Origin: an uncultured Gammaproteobacteria bacterium | GTDB lineage: Bacteria > Patescibacteriota > Patescibacteriia > Veblenbacterales > UBA10138 | Assembly (NCBI GenBank): GCA_964348825.1 | Contig: CAYGDX010000003.1 | Location: 22,184-86,183, forward strand | DNA: 64,000 bases | Direction: 5' to 3' | Shown here: piece by piece, positions 762 to 61,495 of the stretch | Layout of the letters: every line of letters begins with the position of its first letter | How positions within the stretch are numbered: position 1 is the first letter of the stretch | The notes under the pieces: generated by a model | What the model was told of the DNA's origin: nothing | Databases searched by the model: none | What the model saw: the letters and a program-made list of their open reading frames with translations, nothing else | Position numbers and translations under genes: made by a program

Positions 762-1274
762 CTAATTACTATCATAAAACATTTGGTAAAAATTGTCTTC
801 CTGCAAACTAGCTAAAAATTCTTCCGGATGCACACTTAATTCTCGTTTTAAATCAACTGGTGAAAACCATTTTACTTCAGCCACTTCTTTGGGCTCAAAT
901 TTTATATCTTTAATATCTGTGTCTAAATTAACAATATAAAATTGTGTAAAATGATTCCATTTGGTTTTAACATGAATTTTAGGTCCAATTTTTAAATCAG
1001 ACAATTTCAAATCCAACCCCAACTCTTCCTTGGTTTCTTTAATTATATTTGATTCATAAGTTTCCCCTTCTTCTACTGTACCAGCCACGGCCGGCCCCCA
1101 CTGCCCCGGATTATGTGATTTATTGTAAGCGCGCCGCGCGAGTAAAAATTCGCCTTTACTATTCGTCAACCACAAAGCCGCTACGCGATAAATAATTTTT
1201 AAATCTTTATCATCGCGCTCTTTTACTCCAATTGGATTATCATTTTCATCTACAATTATAATTTTTGATTTCAT
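762..1274 (-). CDS. NUDIX hydrolase, isopentenyl-diphosphate isomerase-like subgroup
   Basis: Nudix box GTVEEGETYESNIIKETKEELGL. The region RVAALWLTNSKGEFLLARRAYNKSHNPGQWGPAVAG resembles Idi type 1. Confidence 0.7.
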   Translation of the reverse strand: MKSKIIIVDENDNPIGVKERDDKDLKIIYRVAALWLTNSKGEFLLARRAYNKSHNPGQWGPAVAGTVEEGETYESNIIKETKEELGLDLKLSDLKIGPKIHVKTKWNHFTQFYIVNLDTDIKDIKFEPKEVAEVKWFSPVDLKRELSVHPEEFLASLQEDNFYQMFYDSN

Positions 1275-1281
1275 ATTTTTA

Positions 1282-1863
1282 TCACAAACTAATTCCCACT
1301 TGCTTAGCTAAATCTTTCACTAACTCCCAAGGTAGCCCGCGCGCACTATCTTCGCCACCTTCCACTTTTAAATAAAATGGTTTAAGCGATGATTCATCTA
1401 ATTCAAAACCTCCAGCATGACTAAAACATTTGCCTGAGGCAACATAATTATCAATCACTTCGTTTGTTACTGGTCGCCAATACACCTTGGCCACGGCCGA
1501 TCCAACCGCTTGTTCGCCAGAACTTAAATTTGTTACTGCCACGCCATTAATATGCACGGTAGGTTCGTCGCCATAACTTTGTAAAAATCTTTTAGCTTCC
1601 GCTTGGTCAACTGGCTTTTCTCTTAACTCACCTTTATAAAGCACTACTTGATCAGCTGTGATAAGTATAGCTGGTTCGTTGCATTTGATTTTAGATACCA
1701 ACGCATCGGCCTTAGCTTTGGCCAGCGCCATAGTTAATTTTATTGGATCGTCGTCGCGAATAGCTTTTTCATCAATATCAGCTGGCCTAACTTCATAAGT
1801 TAAACCTAATTTATCTAATACTGACTGACGTGATTTAGAAACTGAACCTAAAATAATTTTCAT
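1282..1863 (-). CDS. maf: Maf-like nucleoside triphosphate pyrophosphatase
   Basis: N-terminal ILGS-S-R motif, 193 aa, the typical Maf/YhdE length, with matching conserved layout. Confidence 0.8.
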   Translation of the reverse strand: MKIILGSVSKSRQSVLDKLGLTYEVRPADIDEKAIRDDDPIKLTMALAKAKADALVSKIKCNEPAILITADQVVLYKGELREKPVDQAEAKRFLQSYGDEPTVHINGVAVTNLSSGEQAVGSAVAKVYWRPVTNEVIDNYVASGKCFSHAGGFELDESSLKPFYLKVEGGEDSARGLPWELVKDLAKQVGISL

Positions 1864-1946
1864 AGGATATTAATTTATATTTCAAAATATCGACATTTTT
1901 AAATATCGAAATTTCGATATTTTGATATGTCGAAATATTAAAATTG

Positions 1947-2390
1947 TTATTTGTTTAAAATCTGTTTTAAATATTCATCAAATTCCTGATCTTGATTATT
2001 AACCCGCTTAAACTGTTGGCCTGAAAGCGCACTACCCTTTACTTTATCCACAAAACTCTGAATCAAACGTGACACTTCGTTAGTTAAACCCAAACCTTTA
2101 TTTAATACCGCTTCATTAATAAATCGGCGATCGAATGAAATATAAAGTTGCGCCCTCACTTCACCAGTTTCACCTTTAGCAATAAACAAAGCATCAATGA
2201 ATTCATTTTTAGTGCCCCGGTCAAAACCTTCGGCGATATTAGAAAGTGGTGATATAGCCGCCCGACGAATTTGTCGTTTTAAATCAAAATCTTTAAACTG
2301 AGCTTGGTCGGTAATATCAAAAATAAAATTTGCCAGTTCTCTAGCTCTTTGCCAACAAATCAAATCTTCAAACTTTTGAATTGTCGCCAT
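1947..2390 (-). CDS. Four-helix-bundle protein (23S rRNA intervening-sequence protein family)
   Basis: 147 aa. FEDLICWQRARELANFIF...IAEGFDRGTKNEF is the hallmark of the TIGR02436/PF05635 family. Confidence 0.65.
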   Translation of the reverse strand: MATIQKFEDLICWQRARELANFIFDITDQAQFKDFDLKRQIRRAAISPLSNIAEGFDRGTKNEFIDALFIAKGETGEVRAQLYISFDRRFINEAVLNKGLGLTNEVSRLIQSFVDKVKGSALSGQQFKRVNNQDQEFDEYLKQILNK

Positions 2391-2461
2391 AAAAAATTTC
2401 TTAATATTAATATATTAAAATTTTAAAATGTCGATATCTCGAAATTTCTAAATATTAAACC

Positions 2462-2920
2462 CTACCAACCCAACTCTTTAAGTGCGGCTTCAGCATAAAA
2501 TAAAACATTAGTGCGCAAATCCATCGTGCCCAACTCCTCTTTTGTTGCCCAACGGGCCAAACTTTTCTCGTGATCATTAACTGCACTAGAAATAACATCC
2601 GTACCAGCTTTTGCAAAATATACAAACGTAACGTGTTCATGATTTTCGTTTACCATATTTTTGCCCATATACCTTGGGGCAATGATAGAAAAAAAATTAT
2701 CATCTTTAAATGGGGGTATACTCCCACAAATTTCAATATCTAACCCCACCTCTTCCTTTACTTCACGAATAGCCGCCTCATTCGGATCTTCATCAAGCTC
2801 AATGTGTCCACCAATAGATAACCAATAACCATATTTATCATGCTTACGAAGTAGTATTTTATTTTTATACACAATAAAAACCTCCACCGTAAAATCAATT
2901 TTTTCATGAATGTGTGGCAT
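2462..2920 (-). CDS. NUDIX hydrolase
   Basis: Nudix box GGHIELDEDPNEAAIREVKEEVGLD. Confidence 0.75.
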   Translation of the reverse strand: MPHIHEKIDFTVEVFIVYKNKILLRKHDKYGYWLSIGGHIELDEDPNEAAIREVKEEVGLDIEICGSIPPFKDDNFFSIIAPRYMGKNMVNENHEHVTFVYFAKAGTDVISSAVNDHEKSLARWATKEELGTMDLRTNVLFYAEAALKELGW

Positions 2921-2932
2921 GATAATTACTAA

Positions 2933-3376
2933 TTAACTAATATAAAATTCTTTTTGCAAATAATTTTTTACCATCTTCGCGCTCGGTGGAAAAAGTGGTG
3001 CTGGTAAATTATTTAAATCAAACCACTGCCACTCCACAATTTCATCCGGCTCCATAACTTTTACCTCACCACTAAAATCATCACTAAACATACCTACAGT
3101 AATAAAATGGGCATGTTCATTTTTATCATTGTTTACACACATTACTTTAACCAACTTTAATTCCAAACCCGTTTCCTCCTTTACTTCACGCTTCGCACCT
3201 TCTTCAAACGATTCTCCAAATTCCATTTTACCACCTGGCATAGTCCAACTACCTTCGCCGTGAAGCTCGGAATCGGCTTTAAGTGGATCAGAATGCCGGC
3301 GCCCCAAAAGCACCTTGCCGTCTTTAAAAATCATCACCCCAAACCCGCCTCTAACCTTTTGATTATTGTCTGTCAT
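2933..3376 (-). CDS. NUDIX hydrolase
   Basis: Nudix box PGGKMEFGESFEEGAKREVKEETGLE. Confidence 0.75.
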   Translation of the reverse strand: MTDNNQKVRGGFGVMIFKDGKVLLGRRHSDPLKADSELHGEGSWTMPGGKMEFGESFEEGAKREVKEETGLELKLVKVMCVNNDKNEHAHFITVGMFSDDFSGEVKVMEPDEIVEWQWFDLNNLPAPLFPPSAKMVKNYLQKEFYIS

Positions 3377-3386
3377 ATAAATAAAA

Positions 3387-3803
3387 TTAATTAAGTAAAC
3401 CTCTTTTCAATAAATCGGGAATTATTTTATTTCTAATAATCGGAGAGGTTTTTGGATTAGTTATATAACTTTTATCAATCCAGTGAATATTTTTTACTTC
3501 TGTTGATGCTTTTGGCTCACCAATAATTTTGCCAACATATAATTTAATAGAAACATCTCTATCTGATTTACCAGCCGCAATATCAGTGTATTCATTAACA
3601 TAAACAAGCGAATTTAAATCAACTTCGCAATTTAATTCCTCTTTTATCTCCGCTTTTAACGTCTCAACTTCAGTTGCCTCTTGAAATTGACCGCCGGGCA
3701 TAATGTAATCTGAAGTAACATTACTAGGGTCTTTCTCGCAAACCAGAAACTTGGTTTGATCGTCATTTAAAATTAATAAAGCAATTTTATTATAGTACGC
3801 CAT
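3387..3803 (-). CDS. NUDIX hydrolase (divergent)
   Basis: PGGQFQEATEVETLKAEIKEELNCE Nudix-like box, 138 aa. Confidence 0.6.
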   Translation of the reverse strand: MAYYNKIALLILNDDQTKFLVCEKDPSNVTSDYIMPGGQFQEATEVETLKAEIKEELNCEVDLNSLVYVNEYTDIAAGKSDRDVSIKLYVGKIIGEPKASTEVKNIHWIDKSYITNPKTSPIIRNKIIPDLLKRGLLN

Positions 3804-3816
3804 ACATTAAAATTAA

Positions 3817-4275
3817 TTACTTTTTTAAATACATTTTCACACCTTCTAAAATACCAGAGGTAAAAAACTTTGCGGGCACCACCTTTTCTAATTTAACCCA
3901 CTCATAACCCTTATGCTCACGACTAATCTTAATTTTACCACTTACGTACTTAGCCTCAAAAAATACATACAAAACATGAATCTCTTTTTGCCTACTGCCG
4001 GATTTCTTTGGTAATAAATGCCTCCCCACCGCCACCGGCTTACCCTTCACTATAAATTTTATATTACCTATCTCTTCCCTCACTTCTCTTTCTATAACCT
4101 CCATCAAATCAGTTCTGAATTCATCTGTATCAATTCTACCTCCAGGTAAATCATAAAAACCAGCAAAACTACCACCTTCTACGGCTTTTAGAATCAACAC
4201 TTCGCCGTCTTTATTTTTCAAAAACAACTTTAATGAAATTTGATAAAAATCTTTAGTTTTTTTCATAAGAACCAT
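3817..4275 (-). CDS. NUDIX hydrolase
   Basis: LPGGRIDTDEFRTDLMEVIEREVREEIG Nudix box. Confidence 0.65.
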   Translation of the reverse strand: MVLMKKTKDFYQISLKLFLKNKDGEVLILKAVEGGSFAGFYDLPGGRIDTDEFRTDLMEVIEREVREEIGNIKFIVKGKPVAVGRHLLPKKSGSRQKEIHVLYVFFEAKYVSGKIKISREHKGYEWVKLEKVVPAKFFTSGILEGVKMYLKK

Positions 4276-4278
4276 ACT

Positions 4279-4731
4279 TTAGTTTGATACCACGTATGCG
4301 AGTACGTTAAATTCAGGATCAAAAAATTCTATCATCTCATACTCCGGCCTCACTATAACACGAAGATTGTTTGGACACTTATGTAAATACTCTTTTTTAA
4401 AATTTTCGTAGTTAGTTTCAAAATCATTGCAACCAACTTGTGGACGCTCGGGGTCTGGCTGTCTAATGCGTAAATGCGTGATTTTATTACTTCCAACTAT
4501 AATTGGCACATTCGACTCTGCTCGCGGACCATTATGAAAACTATAGACTTTTCCTATCTCGCCAAGAATTTTAGTTAATAATTCGTACTCTGACTCCGAA
4601 TGTGAAAAAATTGTCAACGACTTAATTGGAAAAGTTTTACCAACTAAATTTTCGGCCAACTTAGATGTTTCAGTGGCAATATAATGTACTGTCTCTAACA
4701 ACCCCTCTTTATTCTGAATTAATTTTTCCAT
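4279..4731 (-). CDS. Hypothetical protein embedded in the NUDIX operon
   Basis: 150-aa ORF with a 4-nt gap to its neighbours. I recognise no family. Confidence 0.4.
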   Translation of the reverse strand: MEKLIQNKEGLLETVHYIATETSKLAENLVGKTFPIKSLTIFSHSESEYELLTKILGEIGKVYSFHNGPRAESNVPIIVGSNKITHLRIRQPDPERPQVGCNDFETNYENFKKEYLHKCPNNLRVIVRPEYEMIEFFDPEFNVLAYVVSN

Positions 4732-4773
4732 TTTTATAAACTACTCAATATTAATCTCTTTATTTATAAAAAA

Positions 4774-5169
4774 TTATTCTATGTCCAACTCCTTAAAACC
4801 AGTAGCGGAGTCAAAAAATCTTTTATACGAGGCGTCATCAAATATTCCAATAACAACCTCTGCTGTAACTTCCACCTTACAACCATCTTTCAAATGACCG
4901 CCGATTACCTTACCATCTTTATCAGAAACAGATATGTGTATATGACAACCATCTTGTGAAATTGTTCCAGTTCCAGAAACAATCTCAAACGCCCCCTCAA
5001 ACTTCTTTACGATTTGATTTTGTGGAGTTGCGCCAGCCATTCTTAAATTAACCTCTTTAAGCGAACCAACAATTGACAATAAAACTCCAGCCTTAATATT
5101 TCTAGATCTATTCTCAATTTCTTCTTTTAAAAATTGATTTGGTTTTAACCGAAATGTTAGTTGCCTCAT
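4774..5169 (-). CDS. PPC/DUF296 domain protein (PD1-like DNA-binding fold)
   Basis: 131 aa. LSIVGSLKEV.LRMAG...FEIVSGTGTIS...HIHISVSDKDGKVIGGHL matches the DUF296 pattern. Confidence 0.5.
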   Translation of the reverse strand: MRQLTFRLKPNQFLKEEIENRSRNIKAGVLLSIVGSLKEVNLRMAGATPQNQIVKKFEGAFEIVSGTGTISQDGCHIHISVSDKDGKVIGGHLKDGCKVEVTAEVVIGIFDDASYKRFFDSATGFKELDIE

Positions 5170-5205
5170 AATATTATTAACTAATGAGATAATTATCTCA
5201 AATTA

Positions 5206-5703
5206 TTATGAATTAAATCTTTGCCACTCAGTTTTTTTACCTTGTCTTTTATTATCAACCATTGCCAATTCATCATAAATACCATCTATCAATTGATAAT
5301 TTTTAGCCTCTTCTAAACTAACCCAAGCAAACTGATCACTTTCTTCAGTTTGTAATATAATTTCACCCGCCACATAATCGGCCATGCACGATATTACCAG
5401 TGACGGACTGCCATCAGCATGAATCGTGGCTAAGCTGGTCACGTATTCAATATTTTCAATCTCAATCCCCACTTCCTCTTTCACCTCACGACGCAGGGTT
5501 TGTTCTAAAACATTGTACCAATAATGCTCTGTATCTTTTGGTAATTGCAAATAATCACTGGTTTCCATTTTACCACCCGGCACTGTCCACATTCCAGGAA
5601 AACGTTTTTTATTTGGTGATCGTCGTGTAATTAAATACTTTCCGTCTTTTACAATAATGGCAGTAATTACTACTTCGTGAAGATATTGATTGGTTGCGTT
5701 CAT
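5206..5703 (-). CDS. NUDIX hydrolase
   Basis: VPGGKMETSDY...LRREVKEEVGIEIE Nudix box. Confidence 0.75.
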   Translation of the reverse strand: MNATNQYLHEVVITAIIVKDGKYLITRRSPNKKRFPGMWTVPGGKMETSDYLQLPKDTEHYWYNVLEQTLRREVKEEVGIEIENIEYVTSLATIHADGSPSLVISCMADYVAGEIILQTEESDQFAWVSLEEAKNYQLIDGIYDELAMVDNKRQGKKTEWQRFNS

Positions 5704-11830: not shown

Positions 11831-11908
11831 CATTAGAACATTAGATCATTAGAACAAAAAAACAAAAAATTGATAAAGTGTTCTACTGTTCTAGGGTTCT
11901 AGTGGTGT
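11831..11908. promoter_or_regulatory. Palindromic 9-mer array element (3x cattagaac-like, AT-rich centre, 3x gttcta-like) upstream of speB
   Basis: cattagaacattagatcattagaac-aaaaaaacaaaaaattgataaa-gtgttctactgttctagggttctagtg. Same architecture recurs at 16748, 34252, 36741 and 59566. Confidence 0.6.
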
Positions 11909-11910
11909 TA

Positions 11911-11958
11911 AAATTTCAGAGATTGCCATGCTCGTCTCGCGACTCGCTCGCAATGACG
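11911..11958. repeat. Gene-3'-end repeat (agagattgcc...caatgacg family), copy A
   Basis: aaatttcagagattgccatgctcgtctcgcgactcgctcgcaatgacg sits immediately 3' of minus-strand gene 11960..12274. Homologous copies at 19191 and 20793. Confidence 0.55.
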
Positions 11959-14117: not shown

Positions 14118-14147
14118 TGTTCCCGCCTAAGCGAAATCTAGTGCGTG

Positions 14148-14279
14148 GGTAAGAGTTGCTCGCCCCGCGTAGCTCTCGCCGTCGCGTAGCCGCTATGGCG
14201 GAGCACGGTTAGCGAAGTGGGGTCATTCCCGCGGCTTGTCCTGCCGTAGTCTTAACGAAGGAGGAAGGCGGGAATCCAG
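14148..14279. repeat. GC-rich ~130-nt element shared with 56021-56106 (reverse complement). Contains a gtcattcccgc...gcgggaatccag hairpin of the GGATTC/GAATGAC family.
   Basis: gtaagagttgctcgccccgcgtagc...gcgaagtggggtcattcccgc..gcgggaatccag matches rc(56021-56106) gtaagaattgctcgccccacgtagc..gcgaagtggggtcattcccgc..gcgggaatccag. Confidence 0.55.
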
Positions 14280-14456
14280 AAAATAATAATCCGAAAATTT
14301 AAAGTATAGTAAAGTATAAGACGATTTTAACTATAAGGAATATTCATCCAAAACGCAAGCCCTGTGGAAAACTTGACTAAGGTAAGTTCAAAGTAGTAAG
14401 GTAGAAGCAGAAAAAACCTAAAACAACATAGTATTTTTAACAAAAAGGATAATACA

Positions 14457-16712: not shown

Positions 16713-16747
16713 TGGTTAGTAAGAGTAAGGGGATCAATTATTTATCA

Positions 16748-16846
16748 CTTGAACATTAGATCACTAGAGCATTAGAACAATAGAAAAACTTTGGTGTATA
16801 ATAATGTTCTAATGCTTAAGTGTTCTAGTGATAAAGTGAACGATAA
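16748..16846. promoter_or_regulatory. Palindromic 9-mer array element upstream of murB (cattaga-c repeats, AT-rich centre with tggtgtataat, then gttctaatg.. repeats)
   Basis: cattagatcactagagcattagaac-aatagaaaaactttggtgtataataat-gttctaatgcttaagtgttctagtg. Lies 35 nt upstream of the murB start. Confidence 0.6.
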
Positions 16847-17085
16847 ATCTACTTATTCCAGCTTACCATCCCCCTTAATTCTGGTAAATCCGTTAAATTA
16901 TCTAAAAATCCTTTAAATCTTATATTTTTACCAAAATAAGTCAATTATAAATAATTAATTTATGCTAATATTAGCCAAAATATTATATTTATTGTTCCAC
17001 AATCATTGACAAAATCTACTATCCGCGCTATCATAGAGTGTTAACAATTTAAAACCAATTTTCGTTCCTAATGCTTGGGGCGCGG

Positions 17086-17210
17086 AAAAGGGTGTTTATA
17101 GTGAGTTAGATTAATTTCAAGCATGCCTTTTTAGGCAAAACGGATGCCGCAGTTGAATATACGGATGACGAATGCTGAATCTGACACACTATAAACACCT
17201 TTTTTAAATA
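17086..17210 (+). ncRNA. Candidate small RNA: ~17-bp closing stem enclosing a ~80-nt GC-rich interior, ending in a U-tract
   Basis: aaaagggtgtttatagtg (17086-17103) pairs with cactataaacacctttt (17186-17202), followed by ttttttaaat. The interior is GC-rich and protein-free. No family recognised. Confidence 0.35.
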
Positions 17211-17239
17211 AAAAAATCAATAACATAAACAAAAAAAAT

Positions 17240-17338
17240 ATGGAAAATTTACTTATCGCAATGGCAATCAGCTTGTTTTTTACAGCTGTTGCTCAGCTCG
17301 ACAAATTGAATCGAGAAATAAAATACCGACATTTATAA
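17240..17338 (+). CDS. Possible 32-aa hydrophobic micro-protein
   Basis: ATG..TAA ORF translating as MENLLIAMAISLFFTAVAQLDKLNREIKYRHL. Below the ORF-track length cut-off; no Shine-Dalgarno. Confidence 0.2.
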   Translation: MENLLIAMAISLFFTAVAQLDKLNREIKYRHL

Positions 17339-17702
17339 ATGCACCCCTCATCCCGGCAAACATGACCGGGCGATCAAAAACCAAAAAATAAAACAATGAA
17401 CAGAACCCGAGCCGCTCCCTAACTAAGGGATATAACCCACCAAAACAAAAATAGTACTACGGGGATAAAACCCCTATTAATAGGAACGCTAGTTCCAATC
17501 AATTTGTATGAACTTAGTATAGTAGAGATAAGAAAAAATCTGATTTATCAGAACTTCCCTCAAAATAATAAATTCATACACTACAAGATTAATGGTCAAG
17601 GGGGAGCCGACAACAACAGTGAACGACCCCCTTCTCTCCCCAGCCGATGATAAAAATCGTCGTTTGAGAAGAGGAAATAAAAATGTCATTCCAAAAATAG
17701 TT

Positions 17703-17780
17703 GTCATTCCCGCGCAGGCGGGAATCCATAAAAACTAAACTACAAATTTCTGGATCCCGGATTCTTGTCCGGGATGACAA
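17703..17780. repeat. Two tandem GGATTC..stem..GAATGAC-family hairpins (gtcattcccgcgcaggcgggaatcc and ggatcccggattcttgtccgggatgaca)
   Basis: Perfect short hairpins flanked by the ggattc / gaatgac motif. Related copies at 14222, 18725, 19063, 19099 and 56021. Confidence 0.55.
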
Positions 17781-18031
17781 TAAACTGTCACTTTAACAAA
17801 CATTTATCTTTACCAACCTGGGAGGAGTAAAACGAATCTAACGAAACATTTTACAACGCGGGGCAGATTTGGGTCGCGACTGGTGTAAACTGGTTTCTAC
17901 CTATTATCTGTACGCTTGGTAGGATGGCTTTCGAGCCAAAATCCTACCCGCCAGGTTAGTAAAGATAAATAATATTTATAAACAAATAACGCCCGCTACC
18001 GAGGATTTATATCGGAGAGGATAAAAACAAA

Positions 18032-18707: not shown

Positions 18708-18787
18708 AAGATTATAATTATTTCTGGATTCTTGCCTGTGCAGGAATGACAAACGTGTTATAACTTAAAAAAGTTAAACTAACTACC

Positions 18788-19190: not shown

Positions 19191-19241
19191 AATTTTGAGA
19201 GATTGCCATGTCGTTCGCCTTACTCACTCCTCGCAATGACG
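19191..19241. repeat. Gene-3'-end repeat, copy B, immediately after the murC stop
   Basis: aattttgagagattgccatgtcgttcgccttactcactcctcgcaatgacg, preceded by ttagaaattagaaattagatattagt, as in copy C. Confidence 0.55.
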
Positions 19242-19246
19242 AAATG

Positions 19247-20650: not shown

Positions 20651-20789
20651 AATATGATTTAAAATAATTTGTAGAAAATCCGAAATCCTAAACCCTAAAT
20701 CCCAAATAAATCATAAAATTTAAAATCCTAATATATAAACCTTTTTGATTTCAAGTATTGGGATTTATTTAGGATTTAGATATTAGGAA

Positions 20790-21938
20790 TTAGAATTTTT
20801 GAGAGATTACTTCGTCATTCCGCTTCACTTCATTCCTCACAATGACGTCCTTTAATAATCGTAAAACCTCACTAACCACCCTCTCCGCTCCATCTTTCGG
20901 AAACAATTTAGTCAAATTTTCCGCGTACTTTTCCCGGCGATCTGTATCGTTCCAAAGCTCGTTTACAGTAGCAACCAATTGCTCACTCGTCAATCCTAAC
21001 TGATGTACATATACCCCAGCTTGTTTCTTGGCTATTAACTCCGCATTGGCTTCTTGATGTTTACTAGGCAAAGGTATCACGATAATTGATTTACCAAGTA
21101 CACCAAGCTCTGTTAAAAAGGCCATACCCGCTCGTGTAATCACTACATCAGCCACTTGAAGTGCTTTAAAAATAGTTTCTGCTTGAGCTACAAATTCAAG
21201 TGGAAGATAGTGCGAATGTTTAAAAGTATTTTTTAAATTACCTTGTCCCGTAATATGAAGTACTTGAAAATTCTTAACTAGCTCTGGTACAGCTTGCTCG
21301 ACTATGCGATTAAGAGAAACAGCGCCCGTGCCTCCACCAATTACCACTAGAATTGGCAAATGTACATTCAAACCTAATTCATTTTTTAATGTATCGGCCG
21401 GCCGAAGATTTAAAAATTCCGAACGCACTGGATTGCCCACTACCCTACAAACGTTATTTGGAAAATCTTTAATTGATTCCGGAAATGTTACCGTAACTAA
21501 ATTCGCCACTCGCCCTAATATTTTATTAGTTAAAACTACTTTAACATCTTGTTGGTGTACCACTAGTGGTACGCTCATTACCTTAGCAACTAAACCAACC
21601 GGTAGTGCCACGAAACTGCCAGCGGTGAGCACGATATCAACCTGATTTCTTGTAAACCAAATTAAACATTTAATAAAACTAAAAAGGATGAGTACTAAAT
21701 CGGTAATATTTTTTATACTAAAGTAACGTCGCCACTTAGCTGCTGGTAGTTGAATATATTTTTCTACTACATTTTGTACCACCTCTTTTTCTGGACCATG
21801 AGTCGTACCAAACCAAACCACGCGTACCTTACACGCCGGCAATTGTTTTTTTAATTCCGCAAGTACTGAAAGTAGGGGCGTAACCGAACCAAGCGTACCA
21901 CCGCCCGCACAAACAATGGTTAATTCTTTTCGTTCCAT
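20790..21938 (-). CDS. murG: MurG, UDP-GlcNAc:undecaprenyl-PP-MurNAc-pentapeptide GlcNAc transferase. The C-terminal ~17 aa are probably read through a repeat.
   Basis: GT28 fold with glycine-rich N-terminus IVCAGGGTLGSVTPLL, 382 aa; sits between ftsW and murC. Confidence 0.85.
   Translation of the reverse strand: MERKELTIVCAGGGTLGSVTPLLSVLAELKKQLPACKVRVVWFGTTHGPEKEVVQNVVEKYIQLPAAKWRRYFSIKNITDLVLILFSFIKCLIWFTRNQVDIVLTAGSFVALPVGLVAKVMSVPLVVHQQDVKVVLTNKILGRVANLVTVTFPESIKDFPNNVCRVVGNPVRSEFLNLRPADTLKNELGLNVHLPILVVIGGGTGAVSLNRIVEQAVPELVKNFQVLHITGQGNLKNTFKHSHYLPLEFVAQAETIFKALQVADVVITRAGMAFLTELGVLGKSIIVIPLPSKHQEANAELIAKKQAGVYVHQLGLTSEQLVATVNELWNDTDRREKYAENLTKLFPKDGAERVVSEVLRLLKDVIVRNEVKRNDEVISQKF
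20793..20847. repeat. Gene-3'-end repeat, copy C, overlapping the annotated 3' end of murG
   Basis: gaatttttgagagattacttcgtcattccgcttcacttcattcctcacaatgacg. The last 17 codons of the murG ORF (..IVRNEVKRNDEVISQKF) are translated from this repeat. Confidence 0.55.
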
Positions 21939-28782: not shown

Positions 28783-28794
28783 AATTTAATGCGT

Positions 28795-28831
28795 CACAAA
28801 AGTTCGCGGTCGCGCGGTATTTGTGACGGGT
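28795..28831. repeat. Nested palindrome cgtcacaaa..gcggtcgcgcgg..tttgtgacg (family of 3)
   Basis: Outer stem TCACAAA/TTTGTGA with inner GC palindrome. Homologous copies at 30307 and 55203, all at junctions between minus-strand genes. Confidence 0.5.
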
Positions 28832-28832
28832 G

Positions 28833-30275: not shown

Positions 30276-30306
30276 AAAAATAAAATAGGTAATAAATATT
30301 TTAATG

Positions 30307-30344
30307 CATCACAAGCTTTCAGCGACCGCTGACATTTTGTGATG
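30307..30344. repeat. Nested palindrome catcacaa..cagcgaccgctg..ttgtgatg
   Basis: Same family as 28795 and 55203. Confidence 0.5.
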
Positions 30345-30347
30345 AAA

Positions 30348-31151: not shown

Positions 31152-31218
31152 AAATTCACTGTCTAAATACCAAATTTTAGGATTTCGGATTTAGAATTTA
31201 GGATTTTATAATTTTCTT

Positions 31219-33571: not shown

Positions 33572-33752
33572 ATAACAAACCTTCTCTTACTAAAAATAAT
33601 TAAAATATTTTTAAAATAATGATATTTTATATCAAAATCTAAATTGCTTAAATCCCAAGTTTAAAGTTCAAAATCCCAATAAAGTTCCAAATGTTTGAAA
33701 ATTTTAAATCATTGAAAATTTATTGGGAATCGGAACTTGGTCATTGAAAATT

Positions 33753-34251: not shown

Positions 34252-34350
34252 TCATTAGAACATTAGATCACTAGAGCATAAAAACAAAAATGTCATTTAT
34301 TATAATGTTTTAATGTTTAAGTGTTCTAGTGTTTTATATTAGCGTTCTAA
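34252..34350. promoter_or_regulatory. Palindromic 9-mer array element upstream of rplI
   Basis: cattagaacattagatcactagagcat-aaaaacaaaaatgtcatttattataat-gttttaatgtttaagtgttctagtg. The centre carries a TATAAT. Confidence 0.6.
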
Positions 34351-35820: not shown

Positions 35821-36753
35821 ATGAAAATATTAGTTACCGGTGGTGCAGGGTTTATTGGCTCACATTTGACTGATTTCTTGGTATCTAAAAAACACCAAGT
35901 TTTAGTGCTGGATAATTTAAGTCACGGACGATTGTCTAATATTGCCACAAACTCTCAAAAATATAAATTTAAAAAAATAGATATTCGCTCACCACGCTTA
36001 TCTACTGTTTTTCGCGCCTTCCGTCCAGAAAAAGTTTTTCACTTGGCGGCACAAATTAATGTACGTGAATCATTAAAAAATCCGGCGCGTGACGCGGAAA
36101 GTAATATTATTGGCGCGCTTAATGTTTTTCAAAATGCCCAAAATGTAGGCGCTAAACAAATTATTTTTACTTCTACTGGCGGCGCACTTTACGGCGAAGC
36201 AAAAATTCGACCCACCCCCGAAAATCATCCGACTGTTCCCCTTTCGCCTTACGGCATCGCCAAGCTCGCCACTGAAAATTATTTAAAATTTTATTATCAA
36301 GTTTATAAATTACCCTCTGTAATTTTAAGATTTTCTAATGTTTACGGCCCACGGCAAAACCCTGAAGGTGAAGCTGGTGTGGTCGCAATTTTTGCAGATT
36401 GTTTATTAAAAGGTTTATCACCAACAATTAACGGCTCGGGGAATCAAACTCGTGATTTTGTTTATGTGGGCGATGTAGTTCAAGCTTTAAACAAAGCAAG
36501 TAGCCATAAAAAATTTGATATTTTTAACATTGCCACTGAACGAGAAGTTAGTATCAATGAAATTTTTAATATTCTTAAAAAAATTACTAAATTTTCTGGT
36601 GCACCAAAATATGTACCAGCAATCCTAGGCGAAATTTATCACAGCGTGTTAAGCGCAAAACACGCCAAGCAAACGTTGCGTTGGCAACCACAGGTTAAAA
36701 TTGAGGAGGGATTAAAAAAAGTGGCGGAGTATATGTTATCACTAAAACATTAG
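35821..36753 (+). CDS. NAD-dependent sugar epimerase/dehydratase (GalE-like SDR)
   Basis: MKILVTGGAGFIGSHL Rossmann motif and YGIAK catalytic Tyr-x3-Lys. Confidence 0.8.
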   Translation: MKILVTGGAGFIGSHLTDFLVSKKHQVLVLDNLSHGRLSNIATNSQKYKFKKIDIRSPRLSTVFRAFRPEKVFHLAAQINVRESLKNPARDAESNIIGALNVFQNAQNVGAKQIIFTSTGGALYGEAKIRPTPENHPTVPLSPYGIAKLATENYLKFYYQVYKLPSVILRFSNVYGPRQNPEGEAGVVAIFADCLLKGLSPTINGSGNQTRDFVYVGDVVQALNKASSHKKFDIFNIATEREVSINEIFNILKKITKFSGAPKYVPAILGEIYHSVLSAKHAKQTLRWQPQVKIEEGLKKVAEYMLSLKH

Positions 36754-36797
36754 AACACTTTATCAATTTTTGTTTTTATGTTCTAGTGGTCTAGTGT
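36741..36797. promoter_or_regulatory. Palindromic 9-mer array element straddling the epimerase stop, immediately upstream of the GT2 gene
   Basis: cactaaaacattagaacac-tttatcaatttttgtttttat-gttctagtggtctagtg. Confidence 0.5.
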
Positions 36798-42294: not shown

Positions 42295-42404
42295 AAATTA
42301 AGTTCGTAGCTGTTAATCAATAGTTCGTAGAACTAATTACTACAAAAAATCGATAAATTATAAAATTATTTTCGAATTTCGATATTCGGATTTCGAATTT
42401 TTAC

Positions 42405-53448: not shown

Positions 53449-53555
53449 TTTAACAAATGTAAAAATTAAAAATCAAAATGAAAAATGACAAATCAAAATT
53501 TAAAATTTTTTAAAATTATCACTTATCTTTATATTATCCTAAATTAGATAAAAAA

Positions 53556-55202: not shown

Positions 55203-55240
55203 CATCACAAACATTCCGCGACCGCTGACACTTTGTGATG
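55203..55240. repeat. Nested palindrome catcacaa..gcgaccgctg..ttgtgatg
   Basis: Same family as 28795 and 30307; between the GT-C start and the DoxX stop. Confidence 0.5.
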
Positions 55241-55260
55241 TGAAATATATTAGACAACTC

Positions 55261-55725: not shown

Positions 55726-55757
55726 ACTAAGTGTTATGAATTAAGAATTAGTTTTAT

Positions 55758-55946
55758 TTTGTTACTTCTTTAATAGAAGTAACCATGAATCGCAGGCCAC
55801 GGTCTCCAAGTTTGAACAGTGCTCGTCAAACGAGCTGGTCAGGCCTATGCACAGCGACCACAAACACGGCCTGACCGGACGCTCGTTTGATTCCCTGCCT
55901 ACCGGCAGGCAGGCGCTCTGTACAAACTTTCCGACATGGCCGCACA
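55758..55946 (+). ncRNA. Copy 2 of the four-copy GC-rich structured repeat. Terminal hairpin gttacttc-tttaata-gaagtaac at 55760-55782.
   Basis: Core ...gtctccaagtttgaacagtgctcgtcaaacgagctggtcaggcctatgc..ggcctgaccggacgctcgtttgattccctgcctaccggcaggcaggcgctctgtacaaactttccgacatggccgcac. The last ~70 nt are identical to copy 3. Confidence 0.6.
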
Positions 55947-56020
55947 ACTTTTGGGAATTGGGATTTTTAAAAATTAGTTATTAGTTGTTAGTGATTTTCC
56001 CCGCCACAGCGGGGCAAGCT

Positions 56021-56106
56021 GGATTCCCGCCGGAGTTTACCCCGCACCAAGATGCGGGGCGGGAATGACCCCACTTCGCCAAGGCTACGTGGGGCGAGCA
56101 ATTCTT
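56021..56106. repeat. GC-rich element homologous (reverse complement) to 14148-14279; contains a ggattcccgcc...ggcgggaatgac hairpin
   Basis: See the 14148 feature. Confidence 0.55.
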
Positions 56107-56437: not shown

Positions 56438-56586
56438 AAAAAATTAAAATGTAAATATAAAAATGGAAAATGACAGATTAAAATTTAAAATGAATTGTAA
56501 CCTATTTAATATCTAAGGAAAAATTATTATCTAATTATTTTTTAATTTTTCATTGTCATTTTTATTTTTGATTTTTTATTTTTAAA

Positions 56587-58181: not shown

Positions 58182-58368
58182 TTGTTACTTCTTTAATAGA
58201 AGTAACCAAGAATCGCGGCCTTCGTCTCCAAGTTTGAACAGTGCTCGTCAAACAATCTGGTCAGGCCTATGCCGAGCGACCACATACACGCCCAAGCCGG
58301 ACGCTCGTTTGATTCCCTGCCTACCGGCAGGCAGGCGCTCTGTACAAACTTTCCGACATGGCCGCACG
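58182..58368 (+). ncRNA. Copy 3 of the four-copy GC-rich structured repeat. Terminal hairpin at 58184-58206.
   Basis: ttgttacttctttaatagaagtaacca..gtctccaagtttgaacagtgctcgtcaaacaatctggtcaggcctatgc...ggcgctctgtacaaactttccgacatggccgcac. Confidence 0.6.
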
Positions 58369-58423
58369 ACTTTCTATGATTTATTTTTCTAATTTCGAAT
58401 TTAGTGCTTCGGATTTGGAATTT

Positions 58424-59565: not shown

Positions 59566-59650
59566 CATTAAAACACTAGAACATTAAAACATTAGAACAT
59601 TATTAATAAAAATCTTGTTTCTATGATCTAGCGATCTAATGTTCTAATGT
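59566..59650. promoter_or_regulatory. Palindromic 9-mer array element beginning 3 nt upstream of the metK start codon
   Basis: cattaaaacactagaacattaaaacattagaacat-tattaataaaaatcttgtttctatg-atctagcgatctaatgttctaatg. Confidence 0.55.
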
Positions 59651-61180: not shown

Positions 61181-61262
61181 AGAGTAAATATATTATCTAA
61201 CAAAACCATGAGTCGGTATAGAAAATTTAAAACAAAAATTTTAAATATCAAAATATTATTTT

Positions 61263-61432
61263 TACCACTTCTCTAGAGAAGTGGTGCAAGAGTCGCCGCC
61301 TCGGTCTCCGGGCTTGAACAGTGCTCGCCAAACGAGCTGGTCAGGCCTATGCCAAGCGACCACAACACGGCCTGACCTTAAGCTCGTTTGCCTTGCGCTC
61401 TGTACAAACCCTACGACAGGGCGGCATTCGTT
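61263..61432 (+). ncRNA. Copy 4 of the four-copy GC-rich structured repeat. Terminal hairpin ccacttctc-ta-gagaagtgg at 61265-61284; lacks the cctgcctaccggcagg sub-hairpin.
   Basis: ccacttctctagagaagtggtgcaagagtcgccgcctcggtctccgggcttgaacagtgctcgccaaacgagctggtcaggcctatgccaagcgaccacaacacggcctgacc..gctcgtttgccttgcgctctgtacaaaccctacgacagggcggca. Same subfamily as copy 1. Confidence 0.6.
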
Positions 61433-61495
61433 TCCATTTTTTGAATTTAGAATTTTAGATTTATTTAGGATTTCGAATTTCGATATTCGGATTTT

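Follow-up and report, generated by a model that had tools for sequence, protein, structure and literature searches.

In Coxiella burnetii, the intervening sequence (IVS) is a selfish element of 428 nt lying in helix 45 of the 23S ribosomal RNA (rRNA) precursor, with two to three tandem GACAGAT heptamers directly before the ATG and a 5' cut at the first repeat (PMC4990558). Open reading frames (ORFs) of the PF05635 family (23S rRNA intervening-sequence protein, S23p) are also present in rRNA insertions of bacteria of the candidate phyla radiation (CPR) (PMC11270868), and PF05635 genes inside cas operons were interpreted as functionally associated (PMC3936711). The family (PF05635/TIGR02436) has been described as functionally uncharacterised (PMC11270868, PMC4990558, PMC10053308) and is related to Avd of diversity-generating retroelements (PMC10053308). 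The only solved member is PDB 2GSC. Here, five palindromes of tandem octamers were analyzed in a 64,000-nt stretch of DNA (the window; contig CAYGDX010000003.1, positions 22,184 to 86,183) from a small, uncultured groundwater bacterium of the Patescibacteriota, together with the PF05635 cassettes to which they appear to be related.

The elements resemble the 23S rRNA IVSs with an S23p/PF05635 ORF (Coxiella burnetii helix 45, PMC4990558; Leptospira) in the ORF family held in the loop, in the complementary termini (stem of about 28 bp or more) and in the tandem heptamers or octamers which run into the ORF start codon and differ in copy number between strains. Sporadic occurrence, suggesting horizontal transfer, and decay of the ORF into short gene-less versions are also common to both. 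Unlike IVSs, they lie between protein-coding genes and not in rRNA helices 25 or 45, both arms are made of tandem repeats, and a single genome has several families side by side, with roughly 3 arrays for each kb of non-coding sequence and many dispersed miniatures. At the level of sequence they have every feature of an IVS except its defining location in rRNA. No paper was found to report that PF05635 genes have arrays at both ends, that they occur in mRNA spacers, or that they have given rise to miniatures. No description of these arrays was found in the literature on Patescibacteria promoters, octamer repeats, or short tandemly repeated repetitive (STRR) sequences.

Miniature inverted-repeat transposable elements (MITEs) and the Correia elements or Neisseria miniature insertion sequences (NEMIS) are also short, non-coding, multi-copy intergenic inverted repeats with an internal-deletion relation to a gene-bearing form and with insertion polymorphism, and Correia transcripts are RNase III substrates. 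Unlike these, the parent here encodes a 120-aa four-helix-bundle protein and not a transposase, and the arms are tandem 7/8-mers. The STRR heptamers of cyanobacteria (Mazel et al. 1990) are reportedly intergenic, plain tandem arrays. They resemble the present arrays as intergenic tandem heptamers, and plasmid PF05635 genes of Nostoc punctiforme and Geminocystis are bracketed by inverted heptamers, but STRRs were described as plain tandem arrays and the PF05635 link was examined here at three plasmid loci. Arrays bound by ribbon-helix-helix proteins (MetJ metboxes spaced at 8 bp, omega heptads at 7 bp, ParG/parH boxes at 8 bp) are tandem 7- or 8-bp units, direct and inverted, sometimes placed around promoters. 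No such protein is linked to the elements here, and their units are free to change if the arms stay complementary. Integron cassettes with attC are promoter-less ORFs oriented as their neighbors, with imperfect palindromes conserved in structure and not in sequence. The cassettes are likewise promoter-less, co-oriented ORFs bounded by imperfect palindromes, but no integrase, attI, or cassette array is present here and the palindrome halves flank the ORF.

Gene-less palindromes and PF05635 cassettes

The reading adopted for each palindrome, with a probability of roughly 0.6, is that it carries no gene and derives by internal deletion from a mobile cassette, as a miniature IVS-like element in an mRNA spacer. 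All five palindromic arrays around an AT-rich center which a first-pass annotation of the window had listed were present (s1 to s5, Table 1). That annotation read the unit as a 9-mer, which was incorrect. Tandem Repeats Finder gave a period of 8 with the octamer CAYTAGAN, and the 9-mer cattagaac is CATTAGAA plus the first base of the next unit. The unit is written CATTAGAA as DNA and CAUUAGAA as RNA. An element comprises an arm of 2-5 CAYTAGAN units, an AT-rich center of 11-30 nt and an inverted arm (TCTARTG form). The two-unit pattern CAYTAGANCAYTAGA (≤2 mismatches) matched 27 times in the window compared to 1.28 expected, and 0 of 100 shuffles reached 27. All 27 matches were confined to five spacers (11831-11904, 16746-16838, 34253-34331, 36740-36796, and 59566-59649). 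The genes next to all five elements are co-directional, and the names given to the downstream genes were confirmed by Pfam (arginase family (speB-like), murB, rplI, GT2, and metK).

The predicted hairpins of the five palindromes ranged from -14.6 to -40.9 kcal/mol, with z-scores of -3.1 to -9.2 relative to shuffles. The arms of s1 (11831-11856, with CATTAGAA three times, and 11880-11904) enclose a center of about 23 nt, and its hairpin was predicted at -20 to -26 kcal/mol (z -5 to -6.5). For s2 an inverted repeat with 45-nt arms, 78% complementary, was found (hairpin z -6.9 and -9.2). In s4 the left arm extends into the upstream ORF, which terminates at the TAG of one of the repeat units. Only in s5, among the window copies, does the PF05635-sense strand lie on the host-gene strand. 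No Rfam family reached the gathering score, and no rRNA match was obtained, in the window or in the cassette loci L099, L133, L137, and L138; all copies lie between protein-coding genes. A sub-threshold match of s2 to a plant miRNA hairpin was taken as chance. The tRNA scan found none.

One full-length cassette, of the ATNTCGAA family, is contained in the window. Its PF05635 gene (1947-2390) is inserted in a NUDIX gene cluster and sits exactly between the ATATCGAA-type arrays listed at 1875-1945 and 2400-2460 in the first-pass annotation. The two arms pair at -33 to -39.5 kcal/mol, and the arm duplexes of full cassettes ranged from -29 to -40 kcal/mol. The cluster (762-5703) is made up of seven tandem NUDIX-domain paralogues, interrupted by the cassette, by a gene with a PCC domain, and by a single ORF that had no Pfam match.

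Full CATTAGAA cassettes, both PF05635, were found at L099 7329-7688 and L133 3896-4255. Full cassettes matched PF05635 with E-values of 2e-24 and, for the window gene, 9.8e-28, and further ones were assigned by precomputed Pfam. The L099 and L133 cassettes both read ...CATTAGAT CACTAGAA CATTAGAA C up to the ATG and TTAATG TTTAAGTG TTCTAATG... from the stop codon onward. L133 comes from sequencing run ERR3094292, whose contigs also encode the exact MurB of the window. The CATTAGAA-cassette protein of the window lineage (P0122) is 88% identical to that of the nearest GTDB genome, Patescibacteria H52-bin160_1 (H52). Its gene lies between pilB and pilT on contigs of runs ERR3094292 and ERR3094302, both with the exact MurB of the window. 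Its TAG is followed by TTAATG TTTAAGTG TTCTAATG TTTTAATG TTCAAGTG TTT and then the ATG of pilT. A further PF05635 gene of this lineage follows pilC and has arms of AAATCC/GGATTT heptamers.

The arrays directly abut the ATG, with CATTAGAAC, CATAAAAAC, or CACATAAC in front of it (L133, L099, L136, and L135), and the same arms bracket promoter-less PF05635 genes. Removing the ORF in silico, between the ATG and a point about 16 nt ahead of the stop codon, brought the cassettes of L099 and L133 into colinear alignment with s2, s3, s5, and the miniatures of H52. The ORF-less cassettes and the miniatures have in common the block AACATTAGATCACTAGA and the signature unit TTTAAGTG, and the palindrome center lines up with the final ~16 nt of the ORF region that was deleted. 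This colinearity after ORF removal points to the palindromes being internally deleted copies of the cassettes. The other array families also have gene-bearing forms: L133 6878-7246 is the full-length counterpart of the AAATCCN/GGATTTN palindrome 5' of murC, and L099 4961-5317 is that of the TAATNTC/GANATTA palindrome. In L099, inverted TAATTTC heptamers surround a second PF05635 gene at a distance of 2 kb from the CATTAGAA cassette. With the window gene at 1947-2390, every array family in the window therefore has a PF05635-bearing counterpart.

The H52 genome contained at least 12 further copies of the CAYTAGAN element beyond the five in the window. Oriented by their asymmetric center, the copies aligned over ~85 nt with the consensus CACTAGAA CACTTAAA CATTAGAA CATTATTAATAAAAAACTTTTTGTTCTTATG ATCTAGTG ATCTAATG TTCTAGTG. 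The repeat units are position-specific and copies at unrelated loci are near-identical. Polarity relative to the flanking genes was the same in 12 of 14 orientable copies, the exceptions being s5 and L034a; in 12 of 14 miniatures the strand matching the PF05635 sense strand runs opposite to the host genes, in contrast to full cassettes, which have the direction of the host genes. Genes found 3' of copies were agmatinase, murB, rplI, GT2, metK, pilM, DedA-like, DsbA-like, ruvX, and atpC. The earlier view that no specific regulon is marked, the downstream genes being unrelated housekeeping genes, was upheld, and a regulon was ruled out by these gene lists.

Arm pairing and turnover of the elements

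Six further PF05635 genes were reached through protein similarity and not through arrays (two in L133, one each in L135 to L138). Inverted 7/8-mer arrays abut the start codon and follow the stop in five of the six. Their units, besides CATTAGAA, are CATGTAA/TTCCATG, CACAAGAA/TTCTAGTG, CACAAAAA/TTTTTGTG, and AAATCC/GGATTT. The sixth gene (L137, a Peregrinibacteria genome) has weaker, more distant arrays. The orientation of the PF05635 gene was that of both neighbors in 15 of 16 cases. PF05635 homologues are numerous in the protein database. PF05635 cassettes recur in Patescibacteria type IV pilus operons (L133, L135, L138, L140, and the P0197 context) at different junctions: pilB-pilT, pilB-pilC, after pilC, and after the pilin gene. 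From their positions these look like independent insertions or a preference for such operons.

Among the matches listed, 105 loci of other phyla were selected solely for CAYTAGAN arrays. Five of these held an array-bracketed PF05635 gene (Chryseobacterium, Dokdonia, Marinilabiliales, Victivallales, and a Gammaproteobacteria metagenome-assembled genome (MAG)). In the 8-kb loci of Chryseobacterium, Dokdonia, and Marinilabiliales the two arrays flanking the PF05635 gene were the only 7/8-mer arrays. The protein from the Gammaproteobacteria MAG shows 52% identity to fh1 of Patescibacteria, and its gene has the same octamer arms. The arms of the cyanobacterial plasmid genes were GGGTGTR/YACACCC (plasmid pNPUN01 of Nostoc punctiforme) at -62.9 kcal/mol and GGGAAAA/TTTTCCC at -68.2 kcal/mol. 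At the level of sequence, the PF05635 association across phyla and the descent of the palindromes as deletion derivatives are shown.

Pure tandem CAYTAGAN arrays were seen in >100 genomes of many phyla among the matches listed, a count obtained without a control pattern and so not comparable with chance. One Bacteroidales MAG (CAYVJA01) held dozens of CAYTAGAN arrays beside GCGCGAAGCGCA hairpins and other period-7/8 arrays. The Actinomycetota MAG FK_Sedi_B_Bin.58 (53% G+C; L009, L047, L053, and L080) held four gene-less palindromes with CATTAGAG ×4 arms facing inward as in the window, around a different center of 50-60 nt; one adjoins a tRNA gene. Both the architecture and the CAYTAGAN unit are therefore also found in a very different genome.

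Within each cassette the two arms are mutually complementary, irrespective of the unit sequence. Duplex energy between the two flanks averaged -26.1 kcal/mol for PF05635 genes compared to -14.5 kcal/mol for the 184 control genes in these loci (Mann-Whitney p = 4.7e-6). In a set of 16 cassettes having about ten different units, own-arm pairing averaged -47.7 kcal/mol compared to -28.4 kcal/mol between cassettes, and 0 of 20,000 permutations reached the observed mean, which indicates that complementarity is maintained while the unit sequence changes. This bears on an alternative in which the 7/8-nt units are recognition sites of an oligomeric protein (the PF05635 pentamer, with one unit for each subunit, on RNA or single-stranded DNA (ssDNA), or a ribbon-helix-helix regulator) and the miniatures are binding sites acting in trans, which would regulate this protein or be mobilized by it. 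The core TAGAA is kept in s1 with uncompensated drift at positions 2-3, a conservation beyond the needs of pairing. The units are also position-specific and conserved across copies, the periods are almost exclusively 7 or 8 and match the spacings of MetJ metboxes, omega heptads, and ParG boxes, the closest cross-phylum protein pair (52% identity) has the same octamer, and s3 and s5 are 99% conserved. The entry of the homologue 2GSC contains five chains, and a homopentamer is the form described for it (PMC4990558). Avd, a relative of PF05635, occurs together with the template RNA and reverse transcriptase of diversity-generating retroelements (PMC10053308). Against such binding, PF05635 homologues at 55-60% identity have very different units (CATTAGAA, CATGTAA, CACAAGAA, CACAAAAA, and CACTGGAT), yet each 5' arm is complementary to its own 3' arm, for which selection on pairing is the simpler explanation. 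S23p is reportedly not made in Coxiella (PMC4990558). A binding array was considered unlikely.

The cassettes and miniatures sit in the short gaps that separate co-directional genes. Relatives lack them in the corresponding spacers, and they differ between close relatives. The peptidase-rplI gap of relatives L121-L126 (61% protein identity) is 37 nt without an element, and the epimerase-metK gap of relative L131 (MetK 72% identical) is 4 nt; the 20-kb locus of L131 is a compact operon in which no 7/8-mer array was found. In the comparison with orthologues of relatives, which the first-pass annotation had proposed, the element was absent, the same genes lying 4-37 nt apart. The copies interrupt operons (epimerase-metK and atpD-atpC), and the compact, element-free gene order of the relatives indicates that the elements are lineage-specific insertions into former operons. 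Elements were also gained, lost, and replaced between relatives. Between pilB and pilT, the window lineage has the full CATTAGAA cassette, the H52-like genome (PilT in the same 90%-identity cluster) has a gene-less palindrome of another family, made of CGAATCA heptamers, and relative L139 (56% PilT identity) has only 78 nt without a PF05635 gene. The 88%-identical fh1 genes of two genomes are at different loci.

The elements are not decaying. The s3 spacer is 99.2% identical to that of the H52-like genome (flanking coding sequences 91-94%), and the s5 spacer 98.9% (1 mismatch in 95 nt relative to L129). The genes flanking s3 and s5 are 89-94% identical. Arrays of A/T-rich heptamers (AAAATNA type; 53449-53555 and 56438-56586) are 52-62% identical to the H52-like genome, with adjoining genes at ~88-90%, and turn over much faster than the CAYTAGAN elements. 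Neutral origin by microsatellite slippage and template switching in a repair-poor small genome, with neither function nor mobility, would fit the varying copy number of units (2 to 7 per arm) and the 52-62% conservation of the A/T-rich arrays between two genomes. This reading is very improbable and already largely refuted by the conserved non-repetitive center, the position-specific units, the near-identical copies at unrelated loci, the specific association with one gene family across phyla, and the 99% conservation of s3 and s5.

A third possibility is a hairpin of the repetitive extragenic palindromic (REP), bacterial interspersed mosaic element (BIME), or Correia type that acts without RNase III, as a domesticated selfish repeat which shields upstream mRNA from 3' exonucleases or attenuates read-through. 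Multi-copy imperfect palindromes strictly between co-directional genes, stable predicted hairpins, and conservation are all in keeping with it. It was thought improbable, as no link to REP-associated tyrosine transposases (RAYT) or other transposases was found among the window proteins scanned, no U-tract follows the hairpins, and the parent is of the IVS type, whose demonstrated fate is RNase III cutting (PMC4990558).

Promoter signals and other repeats of the window

The first-pass annotation took the palindromes for a general promoter/operator architecture or a bidirectional promoter-terminator module, with a -10 box in the center and the arms as operators or terminator. TATAAT was present in the centers of s2 and s3 and absent from the other three, while TATTAAT-like strings occur in s5 and in H52 copies. 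The claimed proximity to start codons held, with the measured distance of the proximal arm at 2-44 nt instead of 3-45 nt. A single polarity relative to the downstream gene in 12 of 14 copies and the strong conservation also agree with a promoter. No sigma-70-type -35/-10 pair (16-18 nt spacing, score ≥9/12) was found in any copy on either strand, however, and promoter-like sites in the element regions showed no clear excess over shuffles (16 compared to 24.6, 27 to 17.5, and 26 to 17.8). No G+C-rich stem with a T-run or U-tract coincides with any element, although canonical terminators occur elsewhere in the window. Recognizable promoters of the lineage resemble TTGACN-17-TGnTAnAAT. Ancestral operons are interrupted, the array of a full cassette abuts the ATG of a promoter-less ORF, and the center corresponds to the end of the deleted ORF region. 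The palindromes are most likely not promoters, and a promoter or promoter-terminator role is quite unlikely.

Beside s2, which faces a 1.2-kb region without a long ORF (16847-18031), there is a small ORF of ~33 codons near 17240 and no Rfam match. The best sigma-70-like site of the region is at 17006-17034 (+) (TTGACA-17-TATCAT), and a 27-bp inverted repeat (17086-17112/17178-17204) ends in a T-run. Only ~13 of 62 window genes have a Shine-Dalgarno-like motif, and most starts are preceded by AT-rich TTAATT-like sequence. TTGACT-17-TGGTTAAT ends 4 nt 5' of the rplI ATG in relatives L121-L126, which suggests leaderless mRNAs in the clade.

The other arrays listed in the first-pass annotation are real, with a period of 7 (AAATCCN/GGATTTN and TAATNTC) or 8 (ATNTCGAA), and the differently sequenced arrays do have one architecture in common (Table 1). 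Period-7/8 arrays are a general feature of the non-coding DNA of this lineage. In 154 kb, tandem arrays of ≥3 copies numbered 62 of period 7 and 33 of period 8 in 32.8 kb of non-coding DNA. Equal frequency in coding DNA, which the annotation had named as counting against its proposal, was not observed (5 and 1, respectively, in 120.9 kb). Periods 6 and 9 were nearly absent from the spacers of the lineage.

Table 1. Arrays, palindromes, and associated features of the window
Feature	Position	Strand	Remarks
PF05635 (23S rRNA intervening-sequence protein) gene	1947..2390	-	Pfam E = 9.8e-28; PDB 2GSC homologue
3'-side arm region of window cassette	1864..1946		period-8 ATTTCGAA array, 7.2 copies
5'-side arm region of window cassette	2391..2461
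s1 gene-less palindrome	11831..11908		between 104-aa ORF and speB-like agmatinase gene
s2 gene-less palindrome	16746..16846		33 nt 5' of murB; arms 16746-16785 and 16802-16838, 5 units each
s3 gene-less palindrome	34253..34331		between S41 peptidase gene and rplI
s4 gene-less palindrome	36740..36796		between epimerase and GT2 genes; orientation opposite to s1-s3
s5 gene-less palindrome	59566..59649		fills 95-nt epimerase-metK spacer
Gene-less palindrome, heptamer AAATCCN/GGATTTN	20662..20812		5' of murC; 66-nt arms, 74% complementary
Gene-less palindrome, heptamer TAATNTC/GANATTA	26025..26111
Gene-less palindrome, AAATCCC/GGGATT	33625..33740		5' of pyrG
Single heptamer array TTTAGGA ×4.4	31176..31206	+	just 5' of rpmA
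Single heptamer array TTTCGAA ×4.4	42370..42400
Inverted A/T-rich heptamer arrays AAAATGT/TTATTTT	56440..56584		62% conserved relative to H52-like genome
Heptamer arrays TTTTAGA/ATTTCGA	61438..61494		after S8 peptidase gene
Small G+C-rich hairpin repeats	11915-11955, 19205-19246		also 14118-14290, 17708-17790, 18720-18752, 55990-56060

Three further repeat types were observed. Small G+C-rich hairpin repeats (gagattgccatg...cgcaatgacg; ggattcccgc...gcgggaatg) lie in spacers, often adjoining 7/8-mer arrays. A G+C-rich repeat of ~160-190 nt is present in three copies (55739-55951, 58234-58400, and 61244-61430; 77-85% identity, via L129) in AT-rich spacers of one former operon and ends in the hairpin gttacttct...agaagtaac. 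It had no Rfam match at E ≤ 0.1 and could be another mobile element or a structured RNA. Palindromes of ~40 nt, CRTCACAAA...(GC-rich loop)...TTTGTGAYG, form a separate family directly after the stop codons of co-directional genes (28786-28832, 30303-30347, 55203-55243, and L129 107-149 and 743-784).

Proposed RNA-level role and significance

By homology with the Coxiella 23S rRNA IVS, transcripts of the host operon would include the arms of a miniature IVS-like element, and the arms would pair to give a long, imperfect stem, which would be a substrate of RNase III. The comparison is drawn because of the same ORF family, the terminal stem, the tandem heptamers abutting the ATG, and the RNase III cut at the first repeat. 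If the stem is such a substrate, the miniature would serve as a hairpin for RNA processing or insulation between cistrons, and not as a promoter or operator.

Several observations weigh against this reading. The five window palindromes encode nothing, and their PF05635 link is colinearity with cassettes elsewhere in the same or a sister genome. Co-transcription and RNase III cleavage would hold by homology with the IVS. RNAalifold on 14 copies gave a positive covariation term, which is uninformative because the pairs are almost invariant. G-U strand asymmetry was not consistent and so gives no sign that selection is on pairing in RNA and not in DNA; it was seen in 7 of 14 miniatures and, according to the flank length used, in 5 or in 11 of the 16 full cassettes. 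Conserved mismatched units (CACTTAAA opposite ATCTAGTG) imply that perfect pairing is not what is conserved. No clear target-site duplication was seen by eye, the flanks merely extending the palindrome (TTATT...ATAATT), and PF05635 is not a known transposase. No explanation was found for the 12 of 14 orientation bias of the miniatures relative to host genes. Finally, the 99% identity of s3 and s5 next to genes at 89-94% suggests a constraint beyond that on a junk insertion. Better folding of the five window copies on the host-antisense strand (G-U for C-A) failed to generalize and was dropped as evidence for selection at the RNA level or for a particular strand.

Host ORFs end in or start at array units in s4, at ftsW in L136, and at the gene after the L135 cassette. 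With a period which is not divisible by 3, each of the three frames would receive a TAG/TAA from one arm and an ATG/GTG from the other. A chain of overlapping mini-ORFs (ATG-NTC-TAA/TAG) was considered for period 8 and rejected; it fits the consensus proximal arm and does not fit the L133 3' arm or the heptamer families.

A wider proposal is tentative and on the unlikely side. PF05635 genes with inverted 7/8-mer arrays may be a widespread, undescribed class of mobile cassette, of which rRNA IVSs would be only the first-noticed members. The pentamer would bind tandem units, one per subunit, on RNA or ssDNA and control processing or mobility. Its non-autonomous relics would be the gene-less palindromes here, the octamer arrays found in MAGs of Bacteroidota and Actinomycetota, and at least some of the STRR heptamers of cyanobacteria. 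The period of 7 or 8 would reflect a protein footprint or the supply of start and stop codons in all frames between coupled genes.

The cyanobacterial plasmid examples lie in genetically tractable organisms and suggest a route to the nature of STRR repeats. The PF05635 genes in cas operons (PMC3936711) may simply be insertions of an IVS-like kind. If the reading of the palindromes as miniature IVS-like elements is true, the IVS-type element would occur in mRNA spacers in gene-bearing and miniature families and would no longer be an rRNA curiosity. The arms would be a concrete, testable ligand or substrate for the PF05635 protein and RNase III. Such arrays should then not be annotated as promoters or operators, and a large part of what is unusual in the intergenic DNA of this CPR lineage would be accounted for.

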